A model generated the notes under the pieces. That model had not been told where the DNA came from, ran no database searches, and worked only from the letters and a program-made list of their open reading frames with translations. The position numbers and the translations under genes are program-made. From the NCBI GenBank assembly GCA_964016885.1, contig OZ024741.1, positions 240,746,001 to 240,810,000 on the forward strand: a stretch of DNA of 64,000 nucleotides, in the 5' to 3' direction. Of this stretch, positions 7,588 through 63,497 are shown one piece after another. Numbering within the stretch: position 1 is the first letter of the stretch; each line of letters opens with the position of its first letter. Origin of the DNA: Eledone cirrhosa. Its lineage: Eukaryota.

Positions 7588-7627
7588 TAATTGATCACAA
7601 GAATATCTATTTTGTTAATATTTGGAA

Positions 7628-7661
<34 letters not shown>

Positions 7662-21935: not shown

Positions 21936-22059
21936 CAGGTACTTTATTTTATCGACCCCGCAAGGATGAAAGGCAAAGTTAACCTCGACGGGATTTTAAC
22001 TTTGCCTTAACATAGTAAAAGTAAATAGTGAAGATTTAGGCCAGAACATACGTATGCGC

Positions 22060-22547
22060 CGACGAACATACACATAAATATACATACGCACGCACAAATA
22101 CATACACACACGTGCACGCGCACATGTGTGTAAACCTTATGCATTTCTACAGTATTTTCACCAAACTTAAGACATATGTTACTTATGTACTCCAGATGGT
22201 CATGGGCACTTTCATTTTTCCAGATATTGATTATAGGGCCTCCCGGCAGATAACCCCCTTTAACCACTTCCTTAGAGTCGACTGAAGCACTGCAGTCATA
22301 ACTTTTGGAGTTCGCAGTCGATTTTCACAAAACTTGACACATGGGCTACGTTTGTGTTCTACAGATGAATGTGAACTCTCAGAATTGGCACATATTGAGT
22401 AGGGGACCCCTGGGGGCAGGAACCCCTTTTGGAAAAAGCCAAGGATTTTGTAAAAGTATAGTTTTTGAAGCAGCACTGAAGTATTGAGATAAATGGTATA
22501 CACAACTGCTATTTAATACCCGAGCAACGCCGGGTACCTCTGTTAGT
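22060..22547 (+). mobile_element. Helitron-like non-autonomous element, 3' end
   Basis: Subterminal GC hairpin acccgagcaacgccgggt then tgttagt (CTAG-like terminus); 5' boundary uncertain. Confidence 0.55.
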
Positions 22548-22699
22548 GAAATATAAAATAATTTAAGTTCTTGAACAAGTAACATATATCGCTACCATCT
22601 TTCCTGTTAACATCCTCTCCCTCATCTTCATCGTCATCATCATCATCACCATCATCTTTCCTGTTAACATCCCCCCTCTTCCTCCTCCTCATCATCATC

Positions 22700-24320: not shown

Positions 24321-24474
24321 CTGCTATTGGAGGAGGTGGGGGTGGAAGATTACGAGTTGAGAAGTAAGATAAAAGAAGAAGAATGCAAAGTAAGAAAGGA
24401 ACAAGACAAAAGGAATATGTAGAAGCCATAATTTGGTGTATGTTAATCAAATGTCTGTAATATTATCAAGGGGA

Positions 24475-24664
24475 GGGCGGTGGATTGGCAGTATCGTTGG
24501 AGAGTCGGACGCCATGGTTTCCAGCATAGTTACGTCCCTTTACGGACTGAGTTCAAATCCCGCCGAGGTTGACTTTGCCTTTCATCCTTACGGGGTCGAT
24601 AAAATAAAGTACCAGTAATACACTGGATTAATTGCTGGCCTTGTGCCTAAAGTAGAAACAATTA
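24475..24664 (+). mobile_element. SINE family B, full length
   Basis: Complete head to tail; attatcaaggg on both flanks. Confidence 0.9.
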
Positions 24665-24689
24665 TCAAGGGAGTATAGAATGTAATGTG

Positions 24690-26215
24690 TTATTGTTGTT
24701 GCTGTTGTGGTTGTTGTTGTTGTTGTTATTGAGTGTTGATGTTATTGTTGTTTATATTGTTGCTGTTGTGGTTGTGGTTGTGGTTGTGTCTGTTGCTGAT
24801 ATTGTTGTTGTGGTGGTTGTTGTTGTTGTGGTTGTTGTCGTTGTTGTTGTTGTTATTGCTGTAGTGGTGGTTGTTGTTGCTGTTGTGGTTGTTGTTGTGT
24901 TTGTTGTTGCTGTTATTGCTGTTGTGGTTGTTGTGGTTGTTGCTGTAGTGGTTGTTGTTGTGTTTGTTGCTGTTGTTGCTGTAGTGGTGGTTGTTGTTGT
25001 TGCTGTTGTGGTTGTTGTTGTGTTTGTTGCTGTAGTGGTTGTTGTTGTGTTTGTTGCTGTAGTGGTTGTTGTTGTTGTTGTTGCGGTTGTTGTTGTTGTT
25101 GTTGCGGTTGTGGTTGTTGTTGTGTTTGTTGCTGTTGTTGCTGTAGTGGTGGTTGTTGTTGTTGTTATGGTTGTTGTTGTTGTTGTGGTTGTTGTTGTGG
25201 TTGTGTTTGTTGTTGCTGTTGTGGTTGTTGTGGTTGTTGTGGTTGTTGCTGTTGTGGTTGTTGCTGTTGTGGTTGTTGTGTTTGTTGTTGCTGTTATTGC
25301 TGTTGTGGTTGTTGTTGTGTTTGTTGCTGTTATTGCTGTTGTGGTGGTTGTTGTTGTTGTGGTTGTTGTTGTGGTTGTGTTTGTTGTTGCTGTTATTGCT
25401 GTTGTGGTTGTTGTGGTTGTTGCTGTTGTGGCTGTTGTTGTGTTTGTTGTTGATGTTATTGCTGTAGTGGTTGTTGTGGTTGTTGCTGTTGTGGTTGTTG
25501 TTGTGTTTGTTGCTGTTATTGCTGTTGTGGTTGTTGTGGTTGTTGCTGTTGTGGTTGTTGTTGTGTTTGTTGTTACTGTTATTGCTGTAGTGGTGGTTGT
25601 TGTTGCTGTTGTGGTTGTTGTTGTGTTTGTTGTTGCTGTTATTGTTGTTGTGGTTGTTGCTGTTGTGGTTGTTGTTGTGTTTGTTGTTGCTGTTATTGCT
25701 GTTGTGGTTCTTGTGGTTGTTGCTGTTGTGGTTGTTGTTGTGTTTGTTGTTGCTGTTATTGCTGTTGTGGTTCTTGTGGTTGTTGCTGTTGTGGTTGTTG
25801 TTGTGTTTGTTGTTGCTGTTATTGATGTTGTGTTTGTTGTTGCTGTTATTGCTGTTGTGGTTGTTGTTGTGTTTGTTGTTGCTGTTATTGCTGTTGTGGT
25901 TCTTGTGGTTGTTGCTGTTGTGGTTGTTCTTGTGTTTGTTGTTGCTGTTATTGCTGTTGTGGTTGTTGCTGTTGTGGTTGTTGTTGTGTTTGTTGTTGCT
26001 GTTATTGCTGTTGTGGTTGTTGTGGTTGTTGTGGTTGTTGCTGTTGTGGTTGTTGTTGTGTTTGTTGTTGCTGTTATTGCTGTTGTGGTTGTTGTGGTTG
26101 TTGCTATTGTGGTTGTTGTTGTGTTTGTTGTTGCTGTTATTGCTGTTGTGGTTGTTGTGGTTGTTGTTGTGTTTTTTATTGCTGTTATTGCTGTTGTGGT
26201 TGTTGTGGTTGTTGC

Positions 26216-26253
<38 letters not shown>

Positions 26254-26255
26254 GA
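24690..26255. repeat. (GTT)n-derived compound minisatellite
   Basis: gttgtgtttgttgttgctgttattgctgttgtg units. Confidence 0.95.
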
Positions 26256-26414
26256 TCAAGCAATCTTGTTGCTGTTTGATCAAGGAATTATATGACAGAA
26301 TAAGGGAATCCCTACAGAATAGTTAAACTAACAAACCACAATTCTCTCATCTGTACAACTGGTGGAGGTGGTGGTTGTGATGATGATGATCTTATTTCAC
26401 AATGTCTTTGTGTG

Positions 26415-26700
26415 TGTGTGTATGCCAGCCTGTGTGTCTGTGTGTGTATGCCAGCCTGTGTGTGTCTGTGTGTGTATGCCAGCCTGTGTGTATCTGTTTG
26501 TGTATGCCAGCCTGTGTGTATCTGTGTGTGTATGCCAGCCTGTGTGTGTCTGTGTGTGTAAGCCAGCCTGTGTGTATCTGTGTGTGTATGCCAGCCTGTG
26601 TGTGTCTGTGTGTGTATGCCAGCCTGTGTGTATCTGTGTGTGTATGCCAGCCTGTGTGTGTCTGTGTGTGTATGCCAGCCTGTGTGTGTCTGTGTGTGTG
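26415..26700. repeat. ~28-bp tandem repeat
   Basis: gtatgccagcctgtgtgt(a/g)tctgtgtgt, about 10 units. Confidence 0.9.
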
Positions 26701-26789
26701 TGCTTAAACTATAATTAAATCTGTGTCTGTCTCTGTGTATGTATGCATATGTCTCTTTCTCTCTCTGTCTCTCTCTATATATATATATA

Positions 26790-29700
26790 CATGTATATGT
26801 GTTTCTGTGTATGTGTCTGTGTCTGTGTGTGTCTGTATATGTGTTTCTGTGTAAGTGATTCTGTGTATGTGTTTCTGTGTATGTGTTTCTGTGTATGTGT
26901 TTCTATGTATGTGTTTCTGTGTATGTGATTCTGTGTATGTGTTTCTGTGTATGTGTTTCTGTGTATGTGTTTCTATGTATGTGTTTCTGTGTATGTGTTT
27001 CTGTATATGTGTTTCTGTATATGTGTTTCTGTGTATATGTTTCTGTGTATGTGTTTCTGTGTATGTGTTTCTGTGTAAGTGTTTCTGTGTATGTGTTTCT
27101 GTGTATGTGTTTCTGTATATGTGTTTCCGTGTATGTGTTTCTGTGTATGTGTTTCTGTGTATGTGTTTCTGTATATGTGTTTCTGTGTATATGTTTCTGT
27201 ATATGTGTTTCTGTGTATGTGTTTCTGTGTATGTGTTTCTGTATATGTGTTTCTGTGTATGTGATTCTGTGTAAGTGATACTGTGTATGTGTTTCTGTGT
27301 ATGTGTTTCTGTGTATGTGTTTCTGTGTATGTGTTTCTGTGTATGTGTTTCTGTGTATGTGTTTCTGTATATGTGTTTCTGTGTGTGTGTTTCTATGTAT
27401 GTGTTTCTGTGTATGTGTTTCTGTATATGTGTTTCTGTGTATGTGTTTCTGTGTATGTGTTTCTGTGTATGTGTTTCTGTGTATGTGTTTCTGTGTATGT
27501 GTTTCTGTGTATGTGTTTCTGTGTATGTGTTTCTGTGTATGTGTTTCTGTATATGTGTTTCTGTGTATGTGATTCTGTGTAAGTGATACTGTATATGTGT
27601 TTCTGTGTATGTGTTTCTGTGTATGTGTTTCTGTGTATGTGTTTCTGTGTATGTGTTTCTGTGTATGTGTTTCTGTGTATGTGTTTCTGTATATGTGTTT
27701 CTGTGTGTGTGTTTCTATGTATGTGTTTCTGTGTATGTGTTTCTGTGTATGTGTTTCTGTGTATGTGTTTCTGTGTATGTGTTTCTGTGTATGTGTTTCT
27801 GTGTATGTGTTTCTGTGTATGTGTTTCTGTGTATGTGTTTCTGTGTATGTGTTTCTGTGTATGTGTTTCTGTGTATGTGTTTCTGTGTATGTGTTTCTGT
27901 GTATGTGTTTCTGTATATGTGTTTCTGTGTATGTGATTCTGTGTAAGTGATACTGTGTATGTGTTTCTGTGTATGTGTTTCTGTGAATGTGTTTCTGTGT
28001 ATGTGTTTCTGTGTATGTGTTTCTGTGTATGTGTTTCTGTGTAAGTGTTTCTGTGTATGTGTTTCTGTGTATGTGTTTCTGTGTATGTGTTTCTGTGTAT
28101 GTGTTTCTGTGTATGTGTTTCTGTGTATGTGTTTCTGTGTATGTGTTTCTGTATATGTGTTTCTGTGAATGTGTTTCTGTGTATGTGTTTCTGTGTATGT
28201 GTTTCTGTGTATGTGTTTCTGTGTATGTGTTTCTGTGTATGTGTTTCTGTGTATGTGATTCTGTGTATGTGTTTCTGTGTATGTGATTCTGTGTATGTGT
28301 TTCTGTGTACGTGTTTCTGTATATGTGTTTCTGTGTATGTGTTTCTGTATATGTGTTTCTGTGTATGTGTTTCTGTGTATGTGATTCTCTGTATGTGTTT
28401 CTGTGTATGTGATTCTGTGTATGTGTTTCTGTGTATGTGTTTCTGTATATGTGTTTCTGTATATGTGTTTCTGTATATGTTTCTGTATATGTGTTTCTGT
28501 GTATGTGTTTCTGTATATGTGTTTCTGTATATGTGTTTCTGTGTACGTGTTTCTGTATATGTGTTTCTGTGTATGTGTTTCTGTATATGTGTTTCTGTGT
28601 ATGTGTTTCTGTGTATGTGTTTCTGTGTATGTGTTTCTGTGTATGTGTTTCTGTATATGTGTTTCTGTGTATGTGTTTCTGTATATGTGTTTCTGTGTAT
28701 GTGTTTCTGTATATGTGTTTCTGTATATGTGTTTCTGTATATGTTTCTGTATATGTGTTTCTGTGTATGTGTTTCTGTATATGTGTTTCTGTGTATGTGT
28801 TTCTGTGTATGTGTTTCTGTATATGTGTTTCTGTGTATGTGTTTCTGTATGTGTTTCTGTGTATGTGTTTCTGTGTGTGTGTTTCTGTGTATGTGTTTCT
28901 GTGTATGTGTTTCTGTATATGTGTTTCTGTGTATGTGTTTCTGTGTATGTGTTTCTGTGTATGTGTTTCTGTGTAAGTGTTTCTGTGTATGTGTTTCTGT
29001 ATATGTGTTTCTGTGTATGTGTTTCTGTATATGTGTTTCTGTGTATGTGTTTCTGTGTATGTGTTTCTGTGTAAGTGTTTCTGTGTATGTGTTTCTGTGT
29101 ATGTGTTTCTGTGTATGTTTTTCTGTGTATGTGTTTCTGTGTATGTGTTTCTGTGTATGTGTTTCTGTGTATGTGTTTCTGTGTGTGTGTTTCTGTGTAT
29201 GTGTTTCTGTGTATGTGTTTCTGTGTATGTGTTTCTGTGTATGTGTTTCTGTGTATGTGTTTCTGTGTATGTGTTTCTGTGTATGTGTTTCTGTGTACGT
29301 GTTTCTGTATATGTGTTTCTGTGTATGTGTTTCTGTATATGTGTTTCTGTGTATGTGTTTCTGTGTATGTGTTTCTGTGTATGTGTTTCTGTGTATGTGA
29401 TTCTCTGTATGTGTTTCTGTGTATGTGATTCTGTGTATGTGTTTCTGTGTATGTGTTTCTGTATATGTGTTTCTGTATATGTGTTTCTGTATATGTTTCT
29501 GTATATGTGTTTCTGTGTATGTGTTTCTGTATATGTGTTTCTGTGTATGTGTTTCTGTGTATGTGTTTCTGTATATGTGTTTCTGTGTATGTGTTTCTGT
29601 ATGTGTTTCTGTGTATGTGTTTCTGTGTGTGTGTTTCTGTGTATGTGTTTCTGTGTATGTGTTTCTGTATATGTGTTTCTGTGTATGTGTTTCTGTGTAT

Positions 29701-30740
29701 GTGTTTCTATGTATGTGTTTCTGTGTATGTGTTTCTGTGTGTGTGTTTCTATGTATGTGTTTCTGTGTATGTGTTTCTGTGTGTGTGTTTCTATGTATGT
29801 GTTTCTGTGTATGTGTTTCTGTGTATGTGTTTCTGTGTATGTGTTTCTGTGTATGTGTTTCTGTGTGTGTGTTTCTGTGTAAATGTTTCTGTGTATGTGT
29901 TTCTGTGTATGTGTTTCTGTGTATGTGATTCTGTGTATGTGTTTCTGTGTATGTGTTTCTGTGTATGTGATTCTGTTTATGTGTTTCTGTGTATGTGATT
30001 CTGTGTATGTGTTTCTGTGTATGTGTTTCTGTATATGTGTTTCTGTGTATGTGTTTCTGTATATGTGTTTCTGTGTATGTGTTTCTGTGTATGTGTTTCT
30101 GTGTATGTGTTTCTGTGTGTGTGTTTCTATGTATGTGTTTCTGTGTATGTGTTTCTGTGTGTGTGTTTCTATGTATGTGTTTCTGTGTATGTGTTTCTGT
30201 GTATGTGTTTCTGTGTATGTGTTTCTGTATATGTGTTTCTGTGTATGTGTTTCTGTATGTGTTTCTGTGTATGTGTTTCTGTGTAAGTGTTTCTTTGTAT
30301 GTGTTTCTGTGTATGTGTTTCTGTGTATGTGTTTCTGTATATGTGTTTCTGTGTATGTGTTTCTGTGTATGTGTTTCTGTATATGTGTTTCTGTGTATGT
30401 GTTTCTGTATGTGTTTCTGTGTATGTGTTTCTGTGTATGTGATTCTCTGTATGTGTTTCTGTGTATGTGATACTGTGTATGTGTTTCTGTATGTGTTTCT
30501 GTGTATGTGTTTCTGTGTATGTGTTTCTGTGTAAGTGATACTGTGTATGTGTTTCTGTGTATGTGTTTCTGTGTATGTGAATCTGTGTATGTAATTCTGT
30601 GTATGTGATTCTATGTATGTGTTTCTGTGTATGTGCTTCTGTTAAGTCATACTGTGTATGTAATTCTGTGTAAGTGATTCTGTGTATGTGATTCTGTGTA
30701 TGTGATTCTGTGTATGTGATTCTGTGTATGCATTTCTGTG
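26790..30740. repeat. 14-bp satellite array, ~3.9 kb
   Basis: (gtatgtgtttctgt)n. Confidence 0.97.
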
Positions 30741-31071
30741 TATGTGTGTTTAACTATAATATATGCCTATATGTATATGTTTTTGAGTGTATGTGTTTAT
30801 ATATATATATTTTTTGTGTGTGTATATCTGTCTATATATCTGTGTGTAATCTACCATTGCCAAGTTAACATGTTTACTTCACAGTCAGGAGTTCCCAGGT
30901 TCAATCTCGTTGTATATCATCTCAAGAAAGTATATTTTACCATAATCTTGTGTGAACTAAAACCCTTGTGTGTGAAATTAGGTAGATGGAAACAGTCTAG
31001 AAGCCCATAAGATAGATGGTAACACTAATTCAAAAGGGTCAAATTTGTTTCAGAATCTCCCTAGAAATTAG

Positions 31072-32590
31072 ATTAATAATAATAATAATAATATTATTGT
31101 GTACAGTGCTCAGGTGCACTGGAACTCATCAAAGGTGCATGTATAGTACATAGAATAATGTTCAAATGTCAGGAAAATGAATAGTGTATGAGTCATGAAA
31201 TACATGTGTGCATGTGTATGGAAGGGGTACATCAGGTGTAGTTTTGGCAAATTTCAGGAAGCATGGAGGTTTTAAAGGATGCAGTGTCTCGGCAGCTAAC
31301 AACTGATGCAGGTAGTTTGTTCCATGCTTCAGCAACTCTGAGCATGAAAAAATGTTTCTGAAAGTCATGGGAGCTGTGCTGTTTTCTGACTTTGTAGGCA
31401 TGTCCACGTGTGTTAGACACATGGAAATCAAAAAGGTGCTCAGGGTTGTTGTTGGCAAGATGGTTAATAATTTTGTCGGTGTTTACCAAGTCAGTTGCTA
31501 GACGTCGGAGCTTCAATGTATCCATGCCCAGGGAAGCAAGGCGTTCAGAGTATGGTAGATGCCTGATGGATGGTAATCGTTTGGTTGCACATTTCTGAAC
31601 AGTTTCCAGGAGGTCAATGTTCTGAGCAAAATGGGGGTTCCAGACTGGTCATGCAAATTCTAAGTGTGGCCACGCCATAGCTATATACAACTTTAAATAG
31701 ATAGCTGAAGAGTGGCTGACAAAGGTCTTGCTGAGTGATGCCAAGACACCCTCGGCCGTCTTGACAATTTTAGAGATGTGCTTCGGCCAACGCAAATGGC
31801 TGCTGACAGTAATGCCCAGGTCACGTTCACAAGAAGACTTCTTGATATTAGTGTTATAGAGGGAGTATGTGGACGCTGGGTTTTTCCTCCCAAAATGCAT
31901 GGTGGTACACTTGTCCACAGCCAACTTGTGTTGCCAGTCCATGATCCATTGCAGCATTGTGTCCAGGTCTGATTACAGGAAAGATCTATAGTGTTCAGAA
32001 TCTGTCCTTTTTATCTCAAGGTACAGCTTGATGTCATCTGCATATTTCAGTACTGTGGCATTCTTTAATTTGGCATCTATGTCATTAATATATGCCACAT
32101 ACAAAAGGGGACCAAGAACAGATCCCTGTGGTACACCAGATGACATCCCATATGGTGAGGGATGCTGTCCTAGAACTGAGAATGAAGGACTTCAGCCAGT
32201 TAAAAAGATCATCCTTCACACCCATTGTAGAGAGTTTTGCCATAAGTCTTTTGTGTTGCACAGAATTGAAAGCTTTAGCAAAGTCAAGGTAAACAACATC
32301 CACCCATGAGCTGCCATCAATGATCCTGGTGATGTCTCGATAAGTTGATCACAGCAGCTGGAGTTAGGGATAAATCCAAATTGCGAGGACCGGATAAGAC
32401 TGTGAGAGTTCCAGAAGTTCCAAAGTGTTTCTCTGACACAGGATTCCATCAGTTTGGCAATGCAGCTAGTAAGACTGACTGGACGATAGTTGACAGGTGA
32501 TGTGCGGTCACCCTTTTTGAACAGAGGAATGACACTGGCAGTTTTCCACTGCTCCAGAGTAACCCTGTCTGTGGAATACTCAGCCACATC
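31072..32590 (-). mobile_element. CR1-type LINE, 5'-truncated, frameshifted RT
   Basis: WKTASVIPLFKKGDRTSPVNYRPVSLTSC, QFGF, DVVYLDFAKAF, GVPQGSVLGP, YADD, ERDLGI; (ATT)n tail. Confidence 0.93.
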
Positions 32591-32744
32591 AGATTGTTTG
32601 TACCTGTAAGTTAAAGGTCCAGCTTTATCAAAGAGTTTTATTTTCATTTTTTTTTAAATTTATTTAATCAGCAGTGTCCTAGATCCTTTTCTGGGTCTTC
32701 TATACTGGCTAGAAACAGTGAGAGTTAGTTCAGTTTTATTTTGG

Positions 32745-32930
32745 ATTCCCTCTGGAGCTTAGGTCACCAACAAGATTTCTCTAACCCTCACTGTCCTGGG
32801 CTAATTACTCCAACTGCCCCCAGGAATGTGCTAAGCTCTTTGGTCACCAGGTATTTGTAGGCCTTCTTTTTTTTTCTCCTTTGGGTTCCAGGTTAGGGCT
32901 TACCATATTGTACTAGATGTAGGCTTTGGA
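32745..32930 (-). mobile_element. Degraded RTE LINE 3' end
   Basis: Minus-strand WGQLE..AQD...RNLVGDLS resembles RTE C-termini. Confidence 0.5.
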
Positions 32931-33352
32931 AATTTCATTGTCATTGTCTCTTGATAATTTCATCATGGATACACTTGATATCTTCAAATTGCAAATCTGT
33001 TTTGAATTCTTGCAACAGAGAGAAATTTACTGAAGATATGCAAGGGCCAGGTGGTGTTATTTACAGGGTGTTGGAATAAGACTACCACTTGAGTAGGCCT
33101 CAATGGTGTTTGGACTTATAACACAAAGAACCAAACCAAATACTGTTAAGTATTTTGTGAGACACTAATAATTCTTCAAATATGTTAACCTCAACTAATA
33201 CTTTATTTTATCAGCCCTAAAAGGATGAATGACTAAAGTGGCCATGGTAGGATTTGAACTCAGTATACAGAGAGCCAAAACAAATATAACAAGGCATTTT
33301 GTCTTATGTTGTTATGTCTTTCTCGATTATTCCATGTTATGCTGATTTTTGG

Positions 33353-33690
33353 AAGGTGCATGACTTAGTGGTTAGAATGTTGGGCTTGCAATCATGAGTT
33401 TGTGACTTTGATTCCTGGACCGGGTGATGCAGTGTGACCTTGAGCAAGACACTTTATTTCCCATTGCTCCTCTTCATTCAGCTGTACAAATAAGCTGCGA
33501 CATCACTGGTGCCAAGCTGTATAAGCCTTTGCCTTTCTCTTGGACAACATTGGTAGTGAGATGAGGGGTGACTGGTAAGTATGTGTGACTGCTGGTTCTC
33601 CACACACAACCTTGCTCAGACATGTGCCTTGTGGGGGGCTTTCCTGGTGCAAATCCTATGGTTATTCATGATCAAAAGGGGTCTTTACCA
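33353..33690 (+). mobile_element. tRNA-derived SINE with CORE-like centre and a different tail
   Basis: ggtgcatgacttagtggttagaatg...gtgaccttgagcaagacacttt. Confidence 0.75.
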
Positions 33691-34014
33691 TATGTTGATT
33701 TAAGAATTTTTTTATTCATAGCATGTTAGTCTTGATTACAGAAAACAAAATTTTTGAGAATGAGCACGTGTGTATTCAGTTAGCCATTTTGAATATATGT
33801 ATATATACAGATACACATACTGTGCCACATAATCAAGTAGCTGGTTACCAAGATACATCAACATTGAAGTATGTACATTTAGATGTATATCTTTCTCTTT
33901 TAAAGGAGATGCTGTTGTTTATTTAGTGTGATAGCTCATGTAAGACACTACCACACTGATATGTCATATCCCATGCTCTCACATAGAAAATGATTTATTA
34001 CTGCCATGTTAATA

Positions 34015-34199
34015 ATTGTTTCTACTTTTGGCACAAGGCCAGCAATTATTCCAGTATATTACTGGTACTTTATTTTATCGACCCCGTAAGGATGAAAGGA
34101 AAAGTTAACCTCGGCGGGATTTGAACTCAGATCATAAAGGGACGTAACTATGCTGGAAAGCATGTCCGACACTCTACCGACACTGCCAATTCACCGCCC
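34015..34199 (-). mobile_element. SINE family B, full length
   Basis: Reverse complement of family B; ttaataat on both flanks. Confidence 0.9.
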
Positions 34200-35007
34200 T
34201 TAATAATGGTATCAATTAGTATAGCCCCCTCTATTTACTTCCCTCTCCTCTTCTCTATTTCTCTGTCTCATTCATATTTTTCTTTTACTGTCACTCTGTA
34301 AATACAGCATTCCCCAACTCTATCAGGAGTTATAAGCCTTACATTTACCTTTTTAAAGATGAAATATGATTAATTTCTTTTGTTGGCCAGAATTCTCACA
34401 GATATTTAACAAAAGTGGAGAGTTTATTAAATTGACCTTGCTATATGATTGGTATTTAAATAGAAATTAGTCATTATAAGACACAAGACAAAATGCCTTG
34501 TAGTATTTGCGTCTGTCTTTCAAGTTCAAATCACTCCAATGTTAATTTTGCCTTTAATCTCTCAATAAAATAAAGTACCAATCCAGAGTTCATATTAAAA
34601 AGTGTTACCATATGAAAATTGCTTCATATTCCATTCTTTCCGTCCTTCTTTTACTTTGAGTAGTTTCAGTTTAAAACTCTAGTAAGTGCAGATAGTCAAT
34701 TCAAATATCACATGACATTTTGTCCTATGCTTTAACAACTCTACCAATTCTCTGACTGAAAGACAGTTATACTTTTTACCATCGTCACAAGAAAAAAGGC
34801 AGCATATGCTTTTCAAATTATTTTGAAAATAATAAAAAACTTGGAGGGATTTAGTAATATAACTGTGCTCCTGCCCTGTCTCTTTAGAAGTAAAACCCAT
34901 GAAGTAAATAATACTCAGCCATGAAAAGATAAGATTATTAAAGTTATATTTGGAATTAATTTTCCACACTTTCTCTTTTTCTTTTTGATGTGTATATATA
35001 TATATGT

Positions 35008-35355
35008 GGAGGCACATGGCTTAGTGGTTAGAGCATTGGCCTTGCAATGGAAAGGTTGTGAGTTCAATTCTCATACCGGTTGATGTGTTGTTTCCTTGAG
35101 CAAGACACTTTATTTCATATTGCTCCAGTTTACTCAGCTGTAGAAATGAGATGATAAGGACTGGGGGTCCCTATCATTCCACTGCAAAGTGGTCGTGGAG
35201 GTGCCACGGAAAAAAAGCACCCAGCACTCACTGTAAATGAGGTTGGTGTTAGGAAGGGCATCCAGCTGTAGAAATCAAGCCAGAATCAGTTCCCGTCCCA
35301 CCCTTGCAAGCAGGGAAAAAGCGGACGCAAAATGATGATGATGATGATGATGATG
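35008..35355 (+). mobile_element. SINE family A, full length, one 49-bp unit
   Basis: Same structure as 17794-18425; (GAT)n tail. Confidence 0.9.
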
Positions 35356-35899
35356 TATGTATATATGTACAATATATATATAGGTTAGAACAGGTGTAAA
35401 TGTGTATTTACATATATAATGTGTGAGTGTGTAGACATTTTAGTGTGCTTTTTTGTGTGAACAAACCTTTTATATATTAATAAAGTAGTCAATATTTCAA
35501 GAAGTTCAGCTAAATAGATTTGTGTATTGAAAGCTGGCTTACAGAATTTTAATTCCACTTCAAAGCTCATCATTGTCTAAGATATGTCACAATTATATTA
35601 CACACCACACCACACCACACTATACTACGCTACACCACACCTAACCCCACCCCACCACACCCCATTACACCACATCCCACCACACCAACTATTAAGTATT
35701 CCCTATCAACGACTACAGTAGTCCCCCATCAACAACTGTGACAGACATAGTGTTGTTATGTGACCCCAGGGAAACTAACTCTGAAGCTAACACAGATTTA
35801 ACAGTCAATAACTTGGCTCCCTTTAAGCTGAACTTATTGTTAGATCTGATTTCATGAGGAGAGTTCTAGAAACTATTTGTTTTATTGCAGTTACACCAG

Positions 35900-38800
35900 A
35901 AATACTGCCACCATCACCATCACCACAGCCACCAGCACCACCACAACCACCACCACCATCACTGCCACCACCACCTCAATCACAGCCACCACCAGCACAG
36001 CCACCATCATAGCCACCACCTCCAATACACTCAATCATTACTCCTACCAACACTACCACGATCATTTCAGCATCACCACCACCACCAGACCACCACAACC
36101 ACCACCACCACCACCAGACCACCACCACCACCAACACTACCACTACAACCACTATCATAACCACCACCACCACAACCACCAACACTACCACTACAACCAC
36201 TATCATAACCACCACCACCACCACCACCACCAACACTACCACTACAACCACTATCATAACCACCACCACCACCAACACTACCACTACAACCACTATCATA
36301 ACCTCCACCACCACCAACACTACCACTACAACCACTATCATAACCACCACCACCACCAACACTACCACTACAACCACTATCATAACCTCCACCACCACCA
36401 ACACTACCACTACAACCACTATCATAACCTCCACCACCACCAACACTACCACTACAACCACTATCATAACCACCACCACCACCAACACTACCACTACAAC
36501 CACTATCATAACCTCCACCACCACCAACACTACCACTACAACCACTATCATAACCACCACCACCACCACCACCAACACTACCACTACAACCACTATCATA
36601 ACCTCCACCACCACCAACACTACCACTACCACCACTATCATAACCACCACCACCACCACCACCAACACTACCACTACAACCACTATCATAACCACCACCA
36701 CCACCAACACTACCACCACTATCATAACCACCACCAACACTACCACTACAACCACTATCATAACCACCACCACCACCACCAACACTACCACTACAACCAC
36801 TATCATAACCACCACAACCACCAACACTACCACTACAACCACTATCATAACCACCACCACCACCAACACTACCACTACAACCACTATCATAACCACCACC
36901 ACCACCAACACTACCACTACAACCACTATCATAACCACCACAACCACCAACACTACCACTACAACCACTATCATAACCACCACAACCACCAACACTACCA
37001 CTACAACCACTATCATAACCACCACCACCACCAACACTACCACTACAACCACTATCATAACCACCACCACCACCAACACTACCACTACAACCACTATCAT
37101 AACCACCACCACCACCAACACTACCACCACTATCATAACCACCACCAACACTACCACTACAACCACTATCATAACCACCACCACCACCACCAACACTACC
37201 ACTACAACCACTATCATAACCACCACAACCACCAACACTACCACTACAACCACTATCATAACCACCACCACCACCAACACTACCACTACAACCACTATCA
37301 TAACCACCACCACCACCAACACTACCACTACAACCACTATCATAACCACCACAACCACCAACACTACCACTACAACCACTATCATAACCACCACAACCAC
37401 CAACACTACCACTACAACCACTATCATAACCACCACCACCACCAACACTACCACTACAACCACTATCATAACCACCACCACCACCAACACTACCACTACA
37501 ACCACTATCATAACCACCACAACCACCAACACTACCACTACAACCACTATCATAACCACCACCACCACCAACACTACCACTACAACCACTATCATAACCA
37601 CCACCACCACCACCAACACTACCACTACAACCACTATCATAACCACCACCACCACCAACACTACCACTACAACCACTATCATAACCACCACCTCCACCAA
37701 CACTACCACTACAACCACTATCATAACCACCACCGCCACCAACACTACCACTACAACCACTATCATAACCACCACAACCACCAACACTACCACTACAACC
37801 ACTATCATAACCACCACCACCACCAACACTACCACTACAACCACTATCATAACCACCACAACCACCAACACTACCACTACAACCACTATCATAACCACCA
37901 CCACCACCAACACTACCACTACAACCACTATCATAACCACCACCTCCACCAACACTACCACTACAACCACTATCATAACCACCACCGCCACCAACACTAC
38001 CACTACAACCACTATCATAACCACCACAACCACCAACACTACCACTACAACCACTATCATAACCACCACCACCACCAACACTACCACTACAACCACTATC
38101 ATAACCACCACAACCACCAACACTACCACTACAACCACTATCATAACCACCACCACCACCAACACTACCACTACAACCACTATCATAACCACCACCACCA
38201 CCACCAACACTACCACTACAACCACTATCATAACCACCACCTCCACCAACACTACCACTACAACCACTATCATAACCACCACCGCCACCAACACTACCAC
38301 TACAACCACTATCATAACCACCACAACCACCAACACTACCACTACAACCACTATCATAACCACCACAACCACCAACACTACCACTACAACCACTATCATA
38401 ACCACCACCACCACCACCAACACTACAACCACTATCATAACCACCACAACCACCAACACTACCACTACAACCACTATCATAACCACCACAACCACCAACA
38501 CTACCACTACAACCACTATCATAACCACCACAACCACCAACACTACCACTACAACCACTATCATAACCACCACCACCACCAACACTACCACTACAACCAC
38601 TATCATAACCACCACAACCACCAACACTACCACTACAACCACTATCATAACCACCACCACCACCAACACTACCACTACAACCACTATCATAACCACCACA
38701 ACCACCAACACTACCACTACAACCACTATCATAACCACCACAACCACCAACACTACCACTACAACCACTATCATAACCACCACCACCACCACCACCAACA

Positions 38801-41510
38801 CTACAACCACTATCATAACCACCACAACCACCAACACTACCACTACAACCACTATCATAACCACCACAACCACCAACACTACCACTACAACCACTATCAT
38901 AACCACCACCACCAACACTACCACTACAACCACTATCATAACCACCACCACCACCAACACTACCACTACAACCACTATCATAATCACCACCACCACCACC
39001 AACACTACCACTACAACCACTATCATAACCACCACCACCACCAACACTACCACTACAACCACTATCATAACCACCACAACCACCAACACTACCACTACAA
39101 CCACTATCATAACCACCACCACCACCAACACTACCACTACAACCACTATCATAACAACCACCACCACCACCAACACTACCACTACAACCACTATCATAAC
39201 CACCACCACCAACACTACCACTACAACCACTATCATAACCACCACCACCACCAACACTACCACTACAACGACTATCATAATCACCACCACCACCACCAAC
39301 ACTACCACTACAACCACTATCATAACCACCACCACCACCAACACTACCACTACAACCACTATCATAACCACCACCACCACCAACACTACAACCACTATCA
39401 TAACCACCACAACCACCAACACTACCACTACAACCACTATCATAACCACCACCACCACCACCAACACTACCACTACAACCACTATCATAACCACCACCAC
39501 CACCAACACTACCACTACAACCACTATCATAACCACCACAACCACCAACACTACCACTACAACCACTATCATAACCACCACCACCACCACCAACACTACC
39601 ACTACAACCACTATCATAACCACCACCACCACCAACACTACCACTACAACCACTATCATAACCACCACCACCACCAACACTACCACTACAACCACTATCA
39701 TAACCACCACACCACCACCAACACTACCACTACAACCACTATCATAACCACCACCACCACCAACACTACCACTACAACCACTATCATAACCACCACCACC
39801 ACCACCACCAACACTACCACTACAACCACTATCATAACCACCACCACCACCAACACTACCACTACAACCACTATCATAACCACCACCACCACCACCACCA
39901 ACACTACAACCACTATCATAACCACCACCACCACCACCAACACTACCACTACAACCACTATCATAACCACCACAACCACCAACACTACCACTACAACCAC
40001 TATCATAACCACCACCACCACCAACACTACCACTACAACCACTATCATAACCACCACCACCACCAACACTACCACTACAACCACTATCATAACCACCACC
40101 ACCACCAACACTACCACTACAACCACTATCATAACCACCACCACCACCACCACCAACACTACAACCACTATCATAACCACCACCACCACCACCAACACTA
40201 CCACTACAACCACTATCATAACCACCACAACCACCAACACTACCACTACAACCACTATCATAACCACCACAACCACCAACACTACCACTACAACCACTAT
40301 CATAACCACCACCACCACCACCAACACTACAACCACTATCATAACCACCACAACCACCAACACTACCACTACAACCACTATCATAACCACCACCACCACC
40401 AACACTACCACTACAACCACTATCATAACCACCACCACCACCACCAACACTACCACTACAACCACTATCATAACCACCACCACCACCAACACTACCACTA
40501 CAACCACTATCATAACAACCACCACCACCACCAACACTACCACTACAACCACTATCATAACCACCACAACCACCAACACTACCACCACTATCATAACCAC
40601 CACCACCACCACCACCAACACTACCACTACAACCACTATCATAACCACCACCACCACCACCACCAACACTACCACTACAACCACTATCATAACCACCACC
40701 ACCACCAACACTACCACTACAACCACTATCATAACCACCACCACCACCACCAACACTACCACTACAACCACTATCATAACCACCACCACCAACACTACCA
40801 CTACAACCACTATCATAACCACCACCAACACTACCACTACAACCACTATCATAACCACCACCACCACCAACACTACCACTACAACCACTATCATAACCAC
40901 CACCGCCCACCAACACTACCACTACAACCACTATCATAACCACCAGACCACCACCAACACTACCACTACAACCACTATCATAACCACCACCACCACCACC
41001 AACACTACCACTACAACCACTATCATAACCACCACCACCAACAACACTACCACTACAACCACTATCATAACCACCACTACCACCAACACTACCACTACAA
41101 CCACTATCATAACCACCACCACCACCAACACTACCACTACAACCACTATCATAACCACCACCACCACCAACACTACCACTACAACCACTATCATAACCAC
41201 CACCAACACTACCACTACAACCACTATCATAACCACCACCACCACCAACACTACCACTACAACCACTATCATAACCACCAGACCACCACCAACACTACCA
41301 CTACAACCACTATCATAACCACCACCACCACCACCAACACTACCACTACAACCACTATCATAACCACCACCACCACCAACACTACCACTACAACCACTAT
41401 CATAACCACCACAACCACCAACACTACCACTACAACCACTATCATAACCACCAGACCACCACCAACACTACCACTACAACCACTATCATAACCACCAGAC
41501 CACCACTACA
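35900..41510. repeat. (CAC)n-derived minisatellite, modal 42-bp unit, ~5.5 kb
   Basis: caccaccaccaccaacactaccactacaaccactatcataac. Confidence 0.97.
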
Positions 41511-41689
41511 GTCATCATCATCATCATCACCATTACTCTGAATAATTTCATTTAAGAAGAAAAAGAACTGATGGACCTCCTCCAAGTTTTTCCTGTGGCA
41601 GTGAGAAATGGCAAATAAACTTACTGGAATATTCTACAGTTGTTGGCTATCCAAACAGCAATATCACTGTACCTACCACCACCACCACC

Positions 41690-42240
41690 ACCACCACCAT
41701 CTCACATACTATCACCACACCACACCAGATAACACCATTCAACACCACAGATATCACACTACACCACTCCATGCCACAGTACATCTGACTACACTACACC
41801 ACACCACACTACACTACACCACTCCACACAACACCATACCGCACTGCACCACACCACATTACACCATATTACCCCACACCACATTACACTACACCATATT
41901 ACACTACACCACATTACACCACATTACACCACACCACATCACACCACACTACACTACACTACACCACACCACACCATACCGCACCGCACCACACCACATT
42001 ACACCATATTACCCCACACCACATTACACTACACCATATTACACTACACCACATTACACCACACCACATTACACCACACCACATCACACCACACAACACT
42101 ACACTGCACCACACCACACTATATCTCACAACACTACACCTCACCACACCACACTACACCACACCACATTACACCACACCACATTACACAACACTACACT
42201 ACACCACACTACACCACACCACACTACACCACACCACCAT
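41690..42240. repeat. (CACAC/TACAC)n pentanucleotide repeat
   Basis: Direct inspection. Confidence 0.9.
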
Positions 42241-50672: not shown

Positions 50673-50861
50673 TTATTTCTACTTTTGGCACAAGGCCAGC
50701 AATTATCCCAGTGTATTACTGGTACTTTATTTTATCGACCCCGTAAGGATGAAAGGCAAAGTTAACCCTGGGGGGATTTGAACTCAGACCATAAAGGGCC
50801 GTAACTCTATGCGTCAAAGCATGGCGTCCGACCCTCTACTGATACTGCCAGTCCACCGCCC
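50673..50861 (-). mobile_element. SINE family B, full length
   Basis: Reverse complement of family B. Confidence 0.9.
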
Positions 50862-50872
50862 TATATATATAT

Positions 50873-53285
50873 ACAGCAGGCTTGGAAAGTATGGCGGGAT
50901 GGGGGAAGTAGAGAGGACTATCAAGTGGCCAGGAGGGAAGCTAGGAGACAAGTGTACTTAGCAAGAAGGGAAGCTGAGGAAAGAAAGTTCAAGCATGTTC
51001 TACAACGCGATGACCAAAAACGTGAGGTGTTCAGGATTGCTAGGCAATGCGTCAAGGAAAACCGTGATATTGTCGGGGAGAAGTGTGTACTAAACGACGA
51101 TGGCACACTTGCCATCACCGACGCTGATAAGAAGGTAGCTTGGAAGTGTCACTATGAAAGGCTTCTAAATGAGGAGAATAATTGGGAGAAAGGCAGTCTC
51201 CCCCATATCGACCCAATAGAGGGACCAGCAGTGTTAGTCGAGGGGAGTATAATAAGTAAGGCAATCAAGGATATGAAGACTGGTAAGGCGGCTGGGCCTT
51301 CGGAAATAGTTGCTGAGATGCTGAAGGCATCTGGCACGGTGGGACACACCATGGTCACCCGCATAGTTAACCAAGTCGTACAAAACGGGGTTGTTCCGAA
51401 GGACTGGCATAGCAGCATCATCGTTAACTGTTATAAGGGTAAAGGAGACGCCCTAGATAGGAGTAACTATAGAGGCATTAAATTAATCGACCAGGTCATG
51501 AAGGTCACGGAAAGAGTAATAGCGCAGCTAATCAGAGAGAGAATTGACCTAGATGAAATGCAGTTCGGGTTTGTGTCAGGCAAAAGTACCACAGACGCTC
51601 TTTTCATAGTACGACAACTACAAGAGAAGTACCTAGCTAAAGGTAAACCCCTCTACTTAGCTTTTGTCGACTTGGAGAAAGCCTTCGACAGAGTCCCCCG
51701 CTCCATTATCTGGTGGGCTCTTAGAAAACTAGGCGTTGACGAATGGCTTGTGAGGGCTATACAAGCCATGTATAAAGAAACAGTCAGCAAGGTTAGAATT
51801 AACAACGAATATAGTGAAGAGTTTAGCGTAAAAGTCGGCGTCCATCAGGGCTCTGTTCTCAGTCCACTACTATTTATTATTGCCCTTCAGGCCATAACAG
51901 AGGAGTTCAAGACAGGCTGCCCATGGGAACTCCTATACGCAGACGACCTGACACTCATAGCGGAATCAATGGCCGAGCTAGAGAAGAAATTCCAAACATG
52001 GAAGCACGGCCTAGAGTCAAAAGGACTTAAAATTAACCTGGCTAAGACCAAAGTACTAGTTTGTAGGAAAGAAAACAAGGCGGCGGTCCCTTCTGGGAAA
52101 TGGTCGTGCTCGGTGTGTAGGAAAGGCGTAGGTAGAAACTCCATTTTATGTCCTAAATGCAAAGTATGGGTGCATAAAAGATGTAGTGGGATCACAGGTA
52201 GGCTAACTAAGAACATAGATTTTACATGTGGCCGGTGCTCTGGTGCAATAAGTAGCAGCAAGTGCCCACAAACTACTAGCTCTTTCAATTGCGCAGAGGG
52301 TTCTATAGAAATAGTGGACAGCTTCCGTTACCTGGGCGATAAAATCAGCAGTGGGGGAGGGTGCTCTGAAAGTACTGTAGCTAGAGTCAGAACTGGTTGG
52401 AAAAAGTTCAGAGAGCTTATACCACTATTAGCTGCTAAAGGGTTCTCACTAAAAATGAAAGGCAGGTTGTACGATGCCTGCATACGAACAGCAATGCTGC
52501 ATGGCAGTGAGACCTGGGCATTGTGTGCAGAGGATATACGCAGACTAGAGAGGAACGAAGCTTGCATGCTCCGCTGGATGTGTAACAGTAATATACGTGA
52601 ACGGCAAAGCATAAACGAACTAAGGAATAAATTAGAGATAAGAGGGATCAGATGTTGTTTACTCGAGAGAAGGCTACGTTGGTATGGACACGTGATGCGC
52701 ATGAAAGTCGATAGCTGTATAACAAAGTGCAGGGCAATAAAGATAGACGGTAGTCACGGAATAGGCAGACCTAGAAAAACCTGGGACGAGCTGATAAACT
52801 CCGACATCACACACTTACACCTCTCCAAGACAATGTCACTGGACCGAGACCTTTGGCGGTACTCAGTAACAGAGAAGACCCGCCTTACCTAAATATATAG
52901 TAAAACCTACTCCAGCCAGTAGGCATCTCTAACAAATACACCCCGTCCCACCACCCCCACCCGATCCACACCACCCCGTTCTATGTAAAGTTATGTTGGT
53001 GCCGCGCCATCGAGGCCGAAACAAATGAGATCGTGTAGGTGTCACGACAAAAAACACACAGTCCACGCTGTAATGTGGCCGTGTAGGCAACACGGTAAAA
53101 ACCTCCCAGACCCACACTGTAAATGTGGTTGGTGTTAGGAAGGGCATCCAACTGTAGAAAACCTGCCAGACAGTCCTATGCGAGCAAGACAATCACTCTT
53201 GCCTCAAGTGGGACTACCCCCGTCCAAACCCATGCAAGCGTGGAACACGGACGTTAAACGCTGATGATGATGATGATGATGATAA
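50873..53285 (+). mobile_element. RTE-clade LINE, 5'-truncated (no APE endonuclease), with 3' UTR and (GAT)n tail
   Basis: Open RT frame, 3' UTR shared with 60260-60648 and 61557-61935, tail gatgatgat. Confidence 0.92.
50925..52892 (+). CDS. RTE LINE reverse transcriptase (N-terminally truncated ORF) with embedded PHD-like finger
   Basis: NYRGIKL, QFGF, AFVDLEKAFDRVP, GVHQGSVLSPLLF, YADD, FRYLG, RLRWYGHVMR, GRPRKTW; 655 aa without stop; the listed start codon is probably not the real one. Confidence 0.9.
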   Translation: MARREARRQVYLARREAEERKFKHVLQRDDQKREVFRIARQCVKENRDIVGEKCVLNDDGTLAITDADKKVAWKCHYERLLNEENNWEKGSLPHIDPIEGPAVLVEGSIISKAIKDMKTGKAAGPSEIVAEMLKASGTVGHTMVTRIVNQVVQNGVVPKDWHSSIIVNCYKGKGDALDRSNYRGIKLIDQVMKVTERVIAQLIRERIDLDEMQFGFVSGKSTTDALFIVRQLQEKYLAKGKPLYLAFVDLEKAFDRVPRSIIWWALRKLGVDEWLVRAIQAMYKETVSKVRINNEYSEEFSVKVGVHQGSVLSPLLFIIALQAITEEFKTGCPWELLYADDLTLIAESMAELEKKFQTWKHGLESKGLKINLAKTKVLVCRKENKAAVPSGKWSCSVCRKGVGRNSILCPKCKVWVHKRCSGITGRLTKNIDFTCGRCSGAISSSKCPQTTSSFNCAEGSIEIVDSFRYLGDKISSGGGCSESTVARVRTGWKKFRELIPLLAAKGFSLKMKGRLYDACIRTAMLHGSETWALCAEDIRRLERNEACMLRWMCNSNIRERQSINELRNKLEIRGIRCCLLERRLRWYGHVMRMKVDSCITKCRAIKIDGSHGIGRPRKTWDELINSDITHLHLSKTMSLDRDLWRYSVTEKTRLT

Positions 53286-53487: not shown

Positions 53488-54112
53488 ATATTCGAAGCAT
53501 GTCAGAAAGATTTAGTGTGGTGTGTGAGCTATGAGTGCGGTAGAAATTAGTGGTTTATGTCATGTAATATCTGGGAAGTATATAACTGCAATCTCAGCTC
53601 TCTGCAGCCATTGTATGTTTTTTTTCACGTGCTTTTGTTAACAGCTCTTCAATTTTAGGCCATCAAATGATGGACACAGAGTAACGAACCAGCCTGAAGT
53701 TTCTGGTCTGCATGGGGAAAACTCTGTCTGAAACACTCAGAATATTGCAGCAAGTATAAAGTGATTAGATGATGTAATGCTCACAGGATTTTGAGTGACA
53801 CAAAAGGTGGAAGATGACCCCAGGAATGGAAGACCTTCAACGAGCAAGACTTAGGCCAATGTTGAACATGTGAGGCATGGCGATCATCAGCTAACTGTTT
53901 GACTGATTGCAAGTGAGCTGGGCATGAATTGTGACAGCATTTGGAAAATTATCACTGATGATTTGGGTATACGGAATGGTGCCAAAGCTGCTGAAAAATG
54001 ACCTGAAGGATTGGTGCATGTGGATATGTAAGGACATCCTCAAGTGTCTTGAAACCAAACCAGACTTTTTGGAGTTATCACCAGTGATGAGTCATGGATC
54101 TTTGCGTATGAC
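53488..54112 (+). pseudogene. Mariner-family transposase remnant
   Basis: From 53670: MDTE*RTSLKFLVCMGKTLSETLRILQQVY, EDDPRNGRPSTS, IASELGM..IWKIITDDLG, VPKLL, VITSDESWIFAYD; stops and frameshifts. Confidence 0.85.
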
Positions 54113-54239
54113 ACATTTTCCGGATGGGTCATGACAATGGAGCTTTGGAGGTTTCTGGGAGAATCCTTCCAGGGCTGTAGGGATACATGGCAGAGAAGGA
54201 TGGGAAAGTGCATTACACTTGAATGGGATTATTATTAAG

Positions 54240-54423
54240 GGGCAGTGAATTGGCAGTATTGGTAGAGGGTCAGACATGCTTTCCAGCGTAGTTACATCCC
54301 TTTACGATCTGTTCAAATACCGCCGAGGTTAACTTTGCCTTTCATCCTTACGGGGTCGATAAAATAAAGTACCAGTAATGTACTGGGTAATTGTTGGCCT
54401 TGTGCCTAAAGTAGAAACAATTA
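54240..54423 (+). mobile_element. SINE family B, full length
   Basis: attattaagggg on both flanks. Confidence 0.88.
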
Positions 54424-54550
54424 TTAAGGGGGAAATTTGTAGTTTGGATTTGAAACTTTTTTTGGCAATCTCAATCCTGTTTCTTTTCTGATCTCTTACA
54501 TATGATGTATGGGACAAGTTTCAAGTCAAAATGTTTTTATTCCACATCGA

Positions 54551-54637
54551 ACATTACATACGTTTCATAGATGATTGGCTTGAGATCTTTATCAATGTGA
54601 TAGACCTGACTCCAATATCAATCTGCTCATCAGATGT
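54551..54637 (-). ncRNA. Type I hammerhead ribozyme with long stem II
   Basis: ACAU-CUGAUGA-GCAGAUUGAUAUUGG..AGGUCU AUCA CAU UGAU AA AGAUCU..CCAAUCAUCUAU-GAAA-C GUAU G-UA^AUGU; stem I only 4 bp. Confidence 0.6.
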
Positions 54638-54684
54638 GTAGATTCATATATATTACCAATTAAATATAACCAGCCAAGTTTTCA

Positions 54685-54743
54685 ATATATGCAAATGAGC
54701 ATTTCCAACCAATGTTTTCTTTTAGATATATGCAAATGAGCAT
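54685..54743 (+). promoter_or_regulatory. Duplicated 18-bp motif containing the octamer ATGCAAAT
   Basis: atatatgcaaatgagcat at 54685-54702 and 54726-54743; CCAAT nearby; function unproven. Confidence 0.4.
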
Positions 54744-54814
54744 CTCCAGAAAATGATCATTATGCCAAATTCTATATAGATTCTAATCTATTTCCTTGCC
54801 AGTACAGATTGTGT

Positions 54815-54867
54815 GAGTGACACTGATGAAAGATTCATAAATCTTGAAACAATGTTGTCTGACATTC
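54815..54867 (+). ncRNA. Type I hammerhead ribozyme
   Basis: GAGUGACA-CUGAUGA-AAGAUU CAUA AAUCUU-GAAA-CAA UG UUG-UC^UGACAUUC: 6-bp stem II, GUC site, stem I 7 of 8 pairs. Confidence 0.72.
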
Positions 54868-55881
54868 TCAAAACCTACTGGCAACTCTGTGATATATTCA
54901 CAGAGGAAAATAGAGAACAATAAAAGTTTTTTGTGACAAAAATATTTTGACATTTTTTTTTTCAATAGCAAGGATACCCATGTGTTTAAAGTATATAATA
55001 CATGTTTATATGTGTCTTCATATACACCTATATTATATTTAAATGCTGTCTTAGTGTTACTTCCAATCATATATATATATAAAGATATTTCCATGTGTAT
55101 AAATCATAATCTTGAAAATGATCCTAAATCTTGTTTATTTCTGTAATAACAAGTTTTTACTGACAAAAAAAAAAAAAGTGGCCAAATTATATACCCCCCC
55201 CCCTCCATTTAGCCAAGGAGGGAAAGGCATTACCCATGACCCCATATTTCTTCAGGGTCTCTGAGACTAGTAAGAGGAAAGGAGGAGGTTAGTCTCAAAC
55301 TGGAGGCTTACCTCCTGAATGCTTGCTACAGAATGAACTATTCTGAAGGCACATAAGGGCTCAGTGCTGGTAATAAACTGGGTGTGATTAAGTCTGCCAC
55401 ACAGGAACTCATAACATGTAGGGCCAAAATAGATAGCTCAAATTGTCTTGTGTGATGCTCTAACAATTCTACCATTTCACTACTTTGTGTGTTTTAGAGT
55501 TAAATATGTACGTCACTGCTGCAACAACACAGTGCTCCCCCTGTCTATAGCTGCGTACACCTAGTCACGCCTATTATTGTTTGTCTCTAATTAATCTACA
55601 CAATAAATAGAAAGGATTCTTGCTAATTACCTGCCATATTATGAATTTCCTCATAGTCTTCATGTTCACCCTGATTCCAGACACGTCCACCATCTTTGTG
55701 TGTGGACAATGTATCAGTGAGATAGTTGGGAACAATAGCAACACTCTGTGCCTCCACATCTCCTCCACATGTCACACTTACAGGGTAGTTATACATCTTT
55801 GATTTGGCCTGCTGCAAAAATTGGACAATATTTCTGCCAGTGAAAATGGCAAACATTGTGTTAAATGAGATAGAGAAGGTG

Positions 55882-56958: not shown

Positions 56959-57110
56959 TGAAATAATAGGAAAAGAGTCTTAACATTTCGGACACTAGTC
57001 CTTCATCAGAAGATAAAATAAGAAATAAATGATGAAATAATAGGAAAAGAGTCTTAACATTTCGGACACTAGTCCTTCATCAGAAGATAAAATAAGAAAT
57101 AAATGATGAA
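56959..57110 (-). ncRNA. Tandem pair of ultra-minimal hammerhead motifs in a 74-bp direct repeat
   Basis: UCUU-CUGAUGA-A-GGAC UAGU GUCC-GAAA-UGUU-AAGA at 56978-57013 and 57052-57087. Confidence 0.65.
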
Positions 57111-61935: not shown

Positions 61936-62251
61936 TAATATGTAATATTGCTTCTCTGAGTGATATCTTATCTATTCATTGAGATGTTTAAGTATTAGAG
62001 ACAAATTAACCTTTAATTTATATATATACATATAATACTACCTTCAACTATTGTTATACTTACTATTGTAGAGAGGCAGTACCATAGCCAAAAAGGGTTA
62101 TTTGAGGTGTGGTTATTGCTAGTTGAAAATTATTCTTACTATATATTGATATGTGCATATGTGTGTGTGCATATATATTTGTTTAAATGGTGTATATGAG
62201 TGTGTACGTTTGCCTCTATATATGTCTTCTTGGCAATGTTTCTGGCACCCA

Positions 62252-63425: not shown

Positions 63426-63497
63426 TTTTGTCTGAAGAGAACATGTAGGGCAACTGTTATACAACTACCATATGTCTTCGAAATACATAAATCAAAA
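63426..63497 (+). ncRNA. Type I hammerhead ribozyme with mutated cleavage site
   Basis: UUUUGU-CUGAAGA-GAACAUGUAGG..CCAUAUGUCUUC-GAAA-UACAUA-AA; the inverted copy at 62661-62684 keeps the intact GAAAUAUGUAUA^ACAAAA. Confidence 0.6.

Follow-up and report, generated by a model that had tools for sequence, protein, structure and literature searches.

Viroids and ambisense circular RNAs carry ribozymes in both polarities. Hammerhead pairs have also been described in connection with Penelope-like elements (PLEs). In Schistosoma, minimal hammerheads were reported on opposite strands 100-700 bp apart, probably as remains of truncated PLEs, and a single hammerhead motif gave no detectable cleavage, according to the parts of that study drawn on here (Cervera and de la Pena 2014, PMC4209133). 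PLEs are described as leaving inverted, 5'-truncated copies and as showing an insertion bias for microsatellites (Craig et al. 2021, PMC8557442, sections on copy structure), and an AT-rich cleavage preference is given in the relevant part of PMC11167929. A further system consists of the non-LTR retrozymes of animals (Cervera and de la Pena 2020, PMC7229834), for which a recent preprint defines a dimer as two or more units in a row that all contain a complete hammerhead (Li et al. 2026, bioRxiv 10.64898/2026.07.22.740005). The locus described here comes closest to the remains of truncated PLEs. Its arrangement is real but ordinary. Opposite-strand pairs from truncated PLEs are already published.

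The locus lies in a stretch of 64,000 nucleotides (the window, meaning the whole stretch of DNA that was analysed) from the genome of Eledone cirrhosa, an AT-rich and microsatellite-rich animal genome of 3.0 Gb. At the locus, two hammerhead motifs lie on opposite strands and point apart, both where a preliminary description of this DNA had placed them, with 189 nt between their cores. As judged from their copies elsewhere in the genome, the two hammerheads are members of two unrelated repeat families, called A (minus strand) and B (plus strand). The features of the locus are as follows.

54498-54646, minus strand: main body of the family A copy, the probable hammerhead-bearing 3' end of a Penelope-like element, with 77-88% identity to other scored copies
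54551-54637, minus strand: type I hammerhead motif of family A (core, stems and predicted cut)
54647-54650, no strand: TATA at the junction of A and B, the putative left copy of the insertion target, from the sequence
54651-54662, plus strand: 5' redundancy of B, the end of a preceding unit, which holds the first CCAAT, from copy comparison
54663-55069, plus strand: family B unit of 407 nt, a non-coding, partial-tandem repeat, delimited from genome copies
54679-54755, plus strand: 41-nt tandem duplication inside B that holds both octamers (83% identity over 36 nt)
54809-54871, plus strand: type I hammerhead motif of family B (core, stems and predicted cut)
55070-55081, no strand: (TA)6 at the 3' end of B, from the sequence
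55082-55094, minus strand: putative displaced 5' arm of the A copy, 13 nt, which extends stem I in uninterrupted copies

Both motifs conform to the conserved hammerhead plan, with the core elements CUGANGA, GAAA and UH and three stems, open at stem I. In the minus-strand motif, the core CUGAUGA occupies 54633-54627 and is followed by a 60-nt stem II insert and GAAA; stem II is long and bulged, stem III is short and near-palindromic, and the predicted cut falls after GUA at 54555. In the plus-strand motif, the core lies at 54823-54829 and stem II has 6 bp; cleavage is predicted after GUC at 54859. Each motif has a mismatch beside the core. On the minus strand this is a C-A mismatch at 54625/54568, with a second C-A mismatch at 54608/54581, and on the plus strand it is an A-A mismatch in stem I at 54820/54862. 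Sequence comparison agrees with the earlier statement that neither motif is an inverted version of the other. Within the families, 86-87% of the cells in the hammerhead stems are paired, compared to 28-44% in slid controls. Rfam recognised neither window motif, either at the gathering score or at E<=10, and neither folded in excess of shuffles (z +0.40 and -0.75). The core is intact in the two window motifs, and also in 13 of 35 A rows and 16 of 31 B rows, so the window motifs may be capable of cleavage. The window copies differ from their family majority to a usual degree (8.6% against a median of 12.5%, and 11.9% against 11.9%).

Do the two hammerheads travel together? Genome searches indicate that each occurs independently and that no other copy has both. 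A 481-nt query (54480-54960) returned 41 other matches when the best 40 of 1391 candidates were scored, and all of them covered the B part only, from ~54650 on. The A part likewise stands alone, because a query over 54390-54660 returned 46 other matches (best 40 of 941 candidates scored), all within 54496-54653. When the junction itself was used as the query (54585-54725), none of the 39 other matches spanned it (best 40 of 377 candidates scored); all 39 were one-sided and broke at 54649/54651-54658 or deeper in B. A pattern consisting of a 13-nt anchor for each motif matched the window locus alone, as far as exact anchors reach, which miss most diverged copies. Furthermore, family A was seen in none of 65 B loci, and three contig runs from one sample (kind unspecified) contained no piece across the junction. 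One of 30 A loci (L133) has the 3' tail of B without its hammerhead, joined behind an inverted A copy with no TA spacer between them, at a junction that differs from that in the window. A second B match among the A loci (L040) was weak and TA-rich and was discounted.

The preliminary description had favored two readings, a dual-polarity retrozyme-like element and a bidirectional promoter with a self-cleaving gate on each side, and had named independent occurrence of the two hammerheads as grounds for giving them up. Independent occurrence, in two families, is what was found. Since the motifs do not travel together, both readings, the second as a purpose-built promoter with two gates, lack support. 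A dual-polarity, viroid-like or ambisense circular RNA element with a ribozyme for each strand is suggested by geometry only: like viroids and ambisense circular RNAs, the window locus has one ribozyme motif per strand. Unlike them, its motifs share no unit, show no co-travel and have no folding excess, on either strand. The motifs come from separate families and their junction is unique among the scored matches, which refutes such an element at the family level and leaves it a negligible probability.

The bidirectional-promoter reading had been prompted by sequence elements between the two motifs. These elements are present: an 18-mer that holds the octamer occurs at 54685-54702 and 54726-54743 (octamers at 54689-54696 and 54730-54737), and two CCAAT boxes lie at 54656 and 54709, where 0.29 would be expected per 177 nt. 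The octamers belong inside family B, however, and A is absent from the 65 B loci. Among 29 other B copies, the first octamer is intact in 15, the second in 17 and both in seven. The first CCAAT is part of the terminal redundancy of B and occurs in 13 of 29 copies; the second occurs in only two of 29 other copies and is nearly private to the window copy. Within each base class, octamer columns agree slightly better across B copies than the other columns do (0.97 vs 0.90 for A/T and 0.83 vs 0.80 for G/C), and because of this slightly better conservation the octamers may serve as a promoter in the B master. A co-option model would go further and propose that the octamers drive two-way transcription at this locus and that both hammerheads process the transcripts. 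The intact cores would fit such a role, as would the somewhat better kept octamer columns, which hint at a role in the master. Against this model, the pair has no second occurrence, a mismatch adjoins the core in each motif, the divergence of both copies from their family majority is ordinary and the second CCAAT is so rarely shared. We consider local co-option most improbable.

What kind of repeat is family B? Like animal non-LTR retrozymes, B is ~400 nt long and non-coding and has one type I hammerhead (PMC7229834, in the part considered), and like them it has a low GC content and partial tandem copies (PMC7229834; bioRxiv 10.64898/2026.07.22.740005, in the portions cited). Unlike them, it shows no dimer as defined by Li et al. 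(bioRxiv 10.64898/2026.07.22.740005, as given in the portion cited) in the 65 sampled loci. None of these loci has two complete hammerheads at unit spacing, and same-strand repeats occur only at 142 and 1118 nt. Many B copies are preceded by part of their own 3' end, variable from copy to copy and 12 nt long in the window copy, and tandem redundancy was seen in at least 13 of the 65 loci. Head-to-head (divergent) inverted copies are present at 11 of the 65 loci and a convergent arrangement at one. The 3' end of B is fixed, and (TA)>=3 follows it in nine of 14 locatable ends (window copy counted), compared to a background of 9%. An exact 30-nt core of B has 34 occurrences, and B was not found in 60 evenly spaced 10-kb stretches of the genome. 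No coding partner for B was found in 30 GIY-YIG loci, in 30 loci of an RT-type element (the L135-type element) or in the flanks of B copies.

The start of family A copies lies 30-50 nt before the core. Many of the copies, including the one in the window, stop at an internal TA tract. TA runs also flank A copies, as judged by eye only. Head-to-head inverted pairs occur at seven of 30 A loci, and neither convergent nor tandem pairs were seen at any of these 30. Covariation did not exceed shuffles within either family (387 of 500 for A and 108 of 500 for B), as expected of neutrally decaying copies. No coding partner for A itself was found in the 30 GIY-YIG loci, in the 30 L135-element loci or in the flanks of A copies. 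An A-like motif that lies 870 nt behind a GIY-YIG ORF (L089) was not counted as a link, because it follows a TA run and is the only one among 30 such loci.

A putative coding link for A is provided by a sister family, A2, which is ~70% identical to A over the motif and gave 3011 candidates in a genome search. At three base pairs, A and A2 differ in both partners; two of these pairs belong to stem II and the third to the palindromic stem III. This result comes from 17 of 35 aligned A rows and 17 of 30 aligned A2 rows, and two families amount to one comparison. In two loci (L283 and L284, 78% identical over 760 nt), A2 lies downstream of, and on the same strand as, the end of a GIY-YIG-like ORF, and this A2-associated ORF end is also present, in part, in three more loci (L285-L287). 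Upstream of A2 is an internal TA/TG tract and then the ORF end. The L283 fragment can be aligned to the GIY-YIG region at the C-terminus of the RT-type ORF of L135 (29% identity, E 1e-9), and the corresponding region of the RT-type ORF of L244 also aligns with it. Pfam reported GIY-YIG on L135 at E 0.007, below the cut-off, and recognised neither the L283 fragment nor the intact L244 frame. In the Atlas, the L135 protein falls with eukaryotic clusters, with HTH_animal in 28-84% of the members and RVT_1 in 16-20%; a search of solved structures returned none matching it. We take this type of element to be Neptune-like. Going by these ORF ends, A2 appears to form the end of a Penelope-like element whose ORF has a GIY-YIG-like C-terminus. 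The coding link of A passes through A2, and the GIY-YIG-like end is seen only for A2.

The copy structure of both families is that of PLEs. Loci of A and B show 5' truncation with inverted or partial-tandem copies, and microsatellite insertion bias is present as well (counted for B ends). As far as the sections cited describe them, the pseudo-LTR hammerheads of truncated PLEs resemble those of A and B in being type I, in having a short palindromic stem III and in being mostly solo (PMC4209133; PMC8557442). Likewise, A and B copies resemble truncated PLEs in being 5'-truncated, often inverted head-to-head and located beside TA microsatellites (same sections of PMC4209133; PMC8557442). There are two differences from the part of PMC4209133 used here: the stem II of A is long and bulged with a 60-nt insert, and the window pair joins two unrelated families, probably through nesting. 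No published description of family A or B turned up among the papers listed in literature searches; supplements may contain one.

The L135-type element, which encodes RT and GIY-YIG (L222-L251; L135:2934-5950), is abundant; many of its copies are nearly identical, and its open frames are long. Towards its 3' end the element passes a long TA/TG tract of its own and then reaches a third, unrelated hammerhead, D. A2 has the same internal-microsatellite layout. Many truncated copies of the element bear an inverted D arm at their 5' junction. These D arms, which lie head-to-head with truncated ORF copies, were considered as heterologous chimeras and rejected, because one copy (L224) carries the upstream part of D behind the ORF, on the same strand and past the TA/TG tract, so that the D-arm copies are ordinary inversions. 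In L105/L135, a B copy diverges from D across a TA run, at a distance of 139 nt. The ORF beside B in these loci was rejected as a partner of B, as it belongs to the different element whose hammerhead is D.

How did A and B come to lie side by side in the window? In uninterrupted A copies, a 5' arm sits 17-33 nt upstream of the core, and in three of these copies arm and body are contiguous. The window copy of A has no 5' arm at the junction, and a match to the arm lies directly past the (TA)6 of B. When 18 of the 25 arms were turned into a scoring matrix, it gave 9.8 bits at 55097-55082 (P=0.004 when the highest of 20 random positions is taken), a score at the low end of the family range (-0.7 to 19.4 bits) for a match of 13 nt noticed post hoc. 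The same score was reached at none of 1215 flanks of (TA)5+ runs in a random genome sample. Arm and body should be separated by four bases, whose place is taken by the TATA at 54647-54650. Because a match to the missing arm of A lies beyond B, the most likely event is an insertion of B into A, with the two in opposite orientations. A nested insertion, in which B lies between the body of A and its 5' arm, is the reading that we consider probable, and the locus would then consist of two unrelated decayed PLE repeats. Two adjacent PLE ends, which the preliminary description had offered as the mundane alternative, are supported in this refined form.

The arm match covers few bases and was picked out post hoc, so the main rival is independent insertion of A and B side by side in one short TA tract, with the likeness to the arm arising by chance. 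TA runs flank both families, B adjoins the unrelated hammerhead across (TA)n in L135, and unrelated neighbours are found in all orientations. However, the arm match lies exactly where nesting predicts it, and none of the 1215 TA runs reaches its score, so that side-by-side insertion appears unlikely. A single event is also conceivable, in which template switching linked an A RNA to a B RNA head-to-head, as happens in PLEs between two copies of one RNA. Head-to-head inversions are frequent inside each family (seven of 30 and 11 of 65 loci), A and B are only 4 nt apart, and the 3' tail of B is fused behind an A copy in L133. Such an event leaves the 5' arm of A beyond B unexplained, and the one apparent series of heterologous fusions that was traced further, the D arms with truncated ORF copies, turned out to involve the far 3' end of the element itself. 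Template switching is therefore highly improbable.

Under nested insertion, A would have arrived first. From what is known of PLE biology, the reverse transcriptase and GIY-YIG endonuclease of a PLE would then have acted in trans to copy B RNA into A, at an AT-rich or TA site 17-21 nt upstream of the A core. The insertion of B would have left two hammerheads facing away from the octamers internal to B. In active masters, by the same biology, each hammerhead would cut its own sense RNA, probably as a dimer formed via the palindromic stem III; the window pair would have no joint function. B contacts other hammerhead families in three settings: inside A (window), behind A (L133) and against D (L135). 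A more general model is that hammerhead-bearing PLE ends preferentially insert into each other and that B targets TA-rich ribozyme arms, breaking the extended stem I. We regard this model as speculative and rather unlikely.

The window contains several other features. An inverted repeat (95%) at 6720-7634 has the same hammerhead facing outward at 6825 (minus) and 7529 (plus), a typical same-family inverted PLE pair. Further hammerhead-like motifs lie at 16646-16591 (minus), 48951-48917 (minus) and 63432-63493 (plus), and a perfect 74-nt tandem duplication at 56959-57106 has half a hammerhead core on the minus strand. The stretch at 54245-54425 is a copy of an extremely abundant short repeat with a summed contig depth of ~1e7 and many more copies in the window, presumably SINE-like. 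The stretch at 53590-54240 is a decayed DNA-transposase-like sequence, 65% identical to a stretch in L054, which we take to be mariner-like. An open frame of 695 aa at 50805-52892 encodes a reverse transcriptase and a PHD finger, a LINE-type remnant; its 5' part overlaps the abundant short repeat, present there in inverted orientation. A U4 snRNA-like match of 50 bits at 62062-62199 is degraded in its 3' half and is probably a pseudogene, and a partial tRNA-like match lies at 11775-11832. Long strand-biased simple repeats occupy 22000-42000, with a GC skew near -1 at 36000-42000, and they create long spurious open frames.

How common are hammerheads in this genome? In a background sample of sixty evenly spaced 10-kb stretches (L136-L195; 599,800 bases), a strict descriptor found 41 motifs in 18 clusters, compared to 0-1 in each of five shuffles. 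This density of about one motif per 15 kb extrapolates to ~205,000 strict motifs genome-wide (95% range 147,000-278,000). Neighbours less than 1 kb apart formed 13 pairs, of which eight were divergent, three tandem and two convergent. Six of the divergent pairs were same-family inversions and two paired unrelated motifs, 288 and 607 nt apart. Unrelated divergent pairs closer than 300 nt thus occurred once per 0.6 Mb, which corresponds to ~5,000 genome-wide (range 126-27,800). All of these background figures are lower bounds, because the descriptor misses some variants. The sample also contains a clean tandem hammerhead array with a 311-nt unit plus one inverted copy (L158:8630-9683).

A single locus of this kind carries little weight in itself, and it serves as a caution for genome scans. 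Where hammerheads are so numerous and belong to so many families, thousands of opposite-strand pairs will form, and such pairs do not point to viroid-like elements. Families A, A2 and B provide material for the study of target choice by PLEs and of the fate of their hammerheads.
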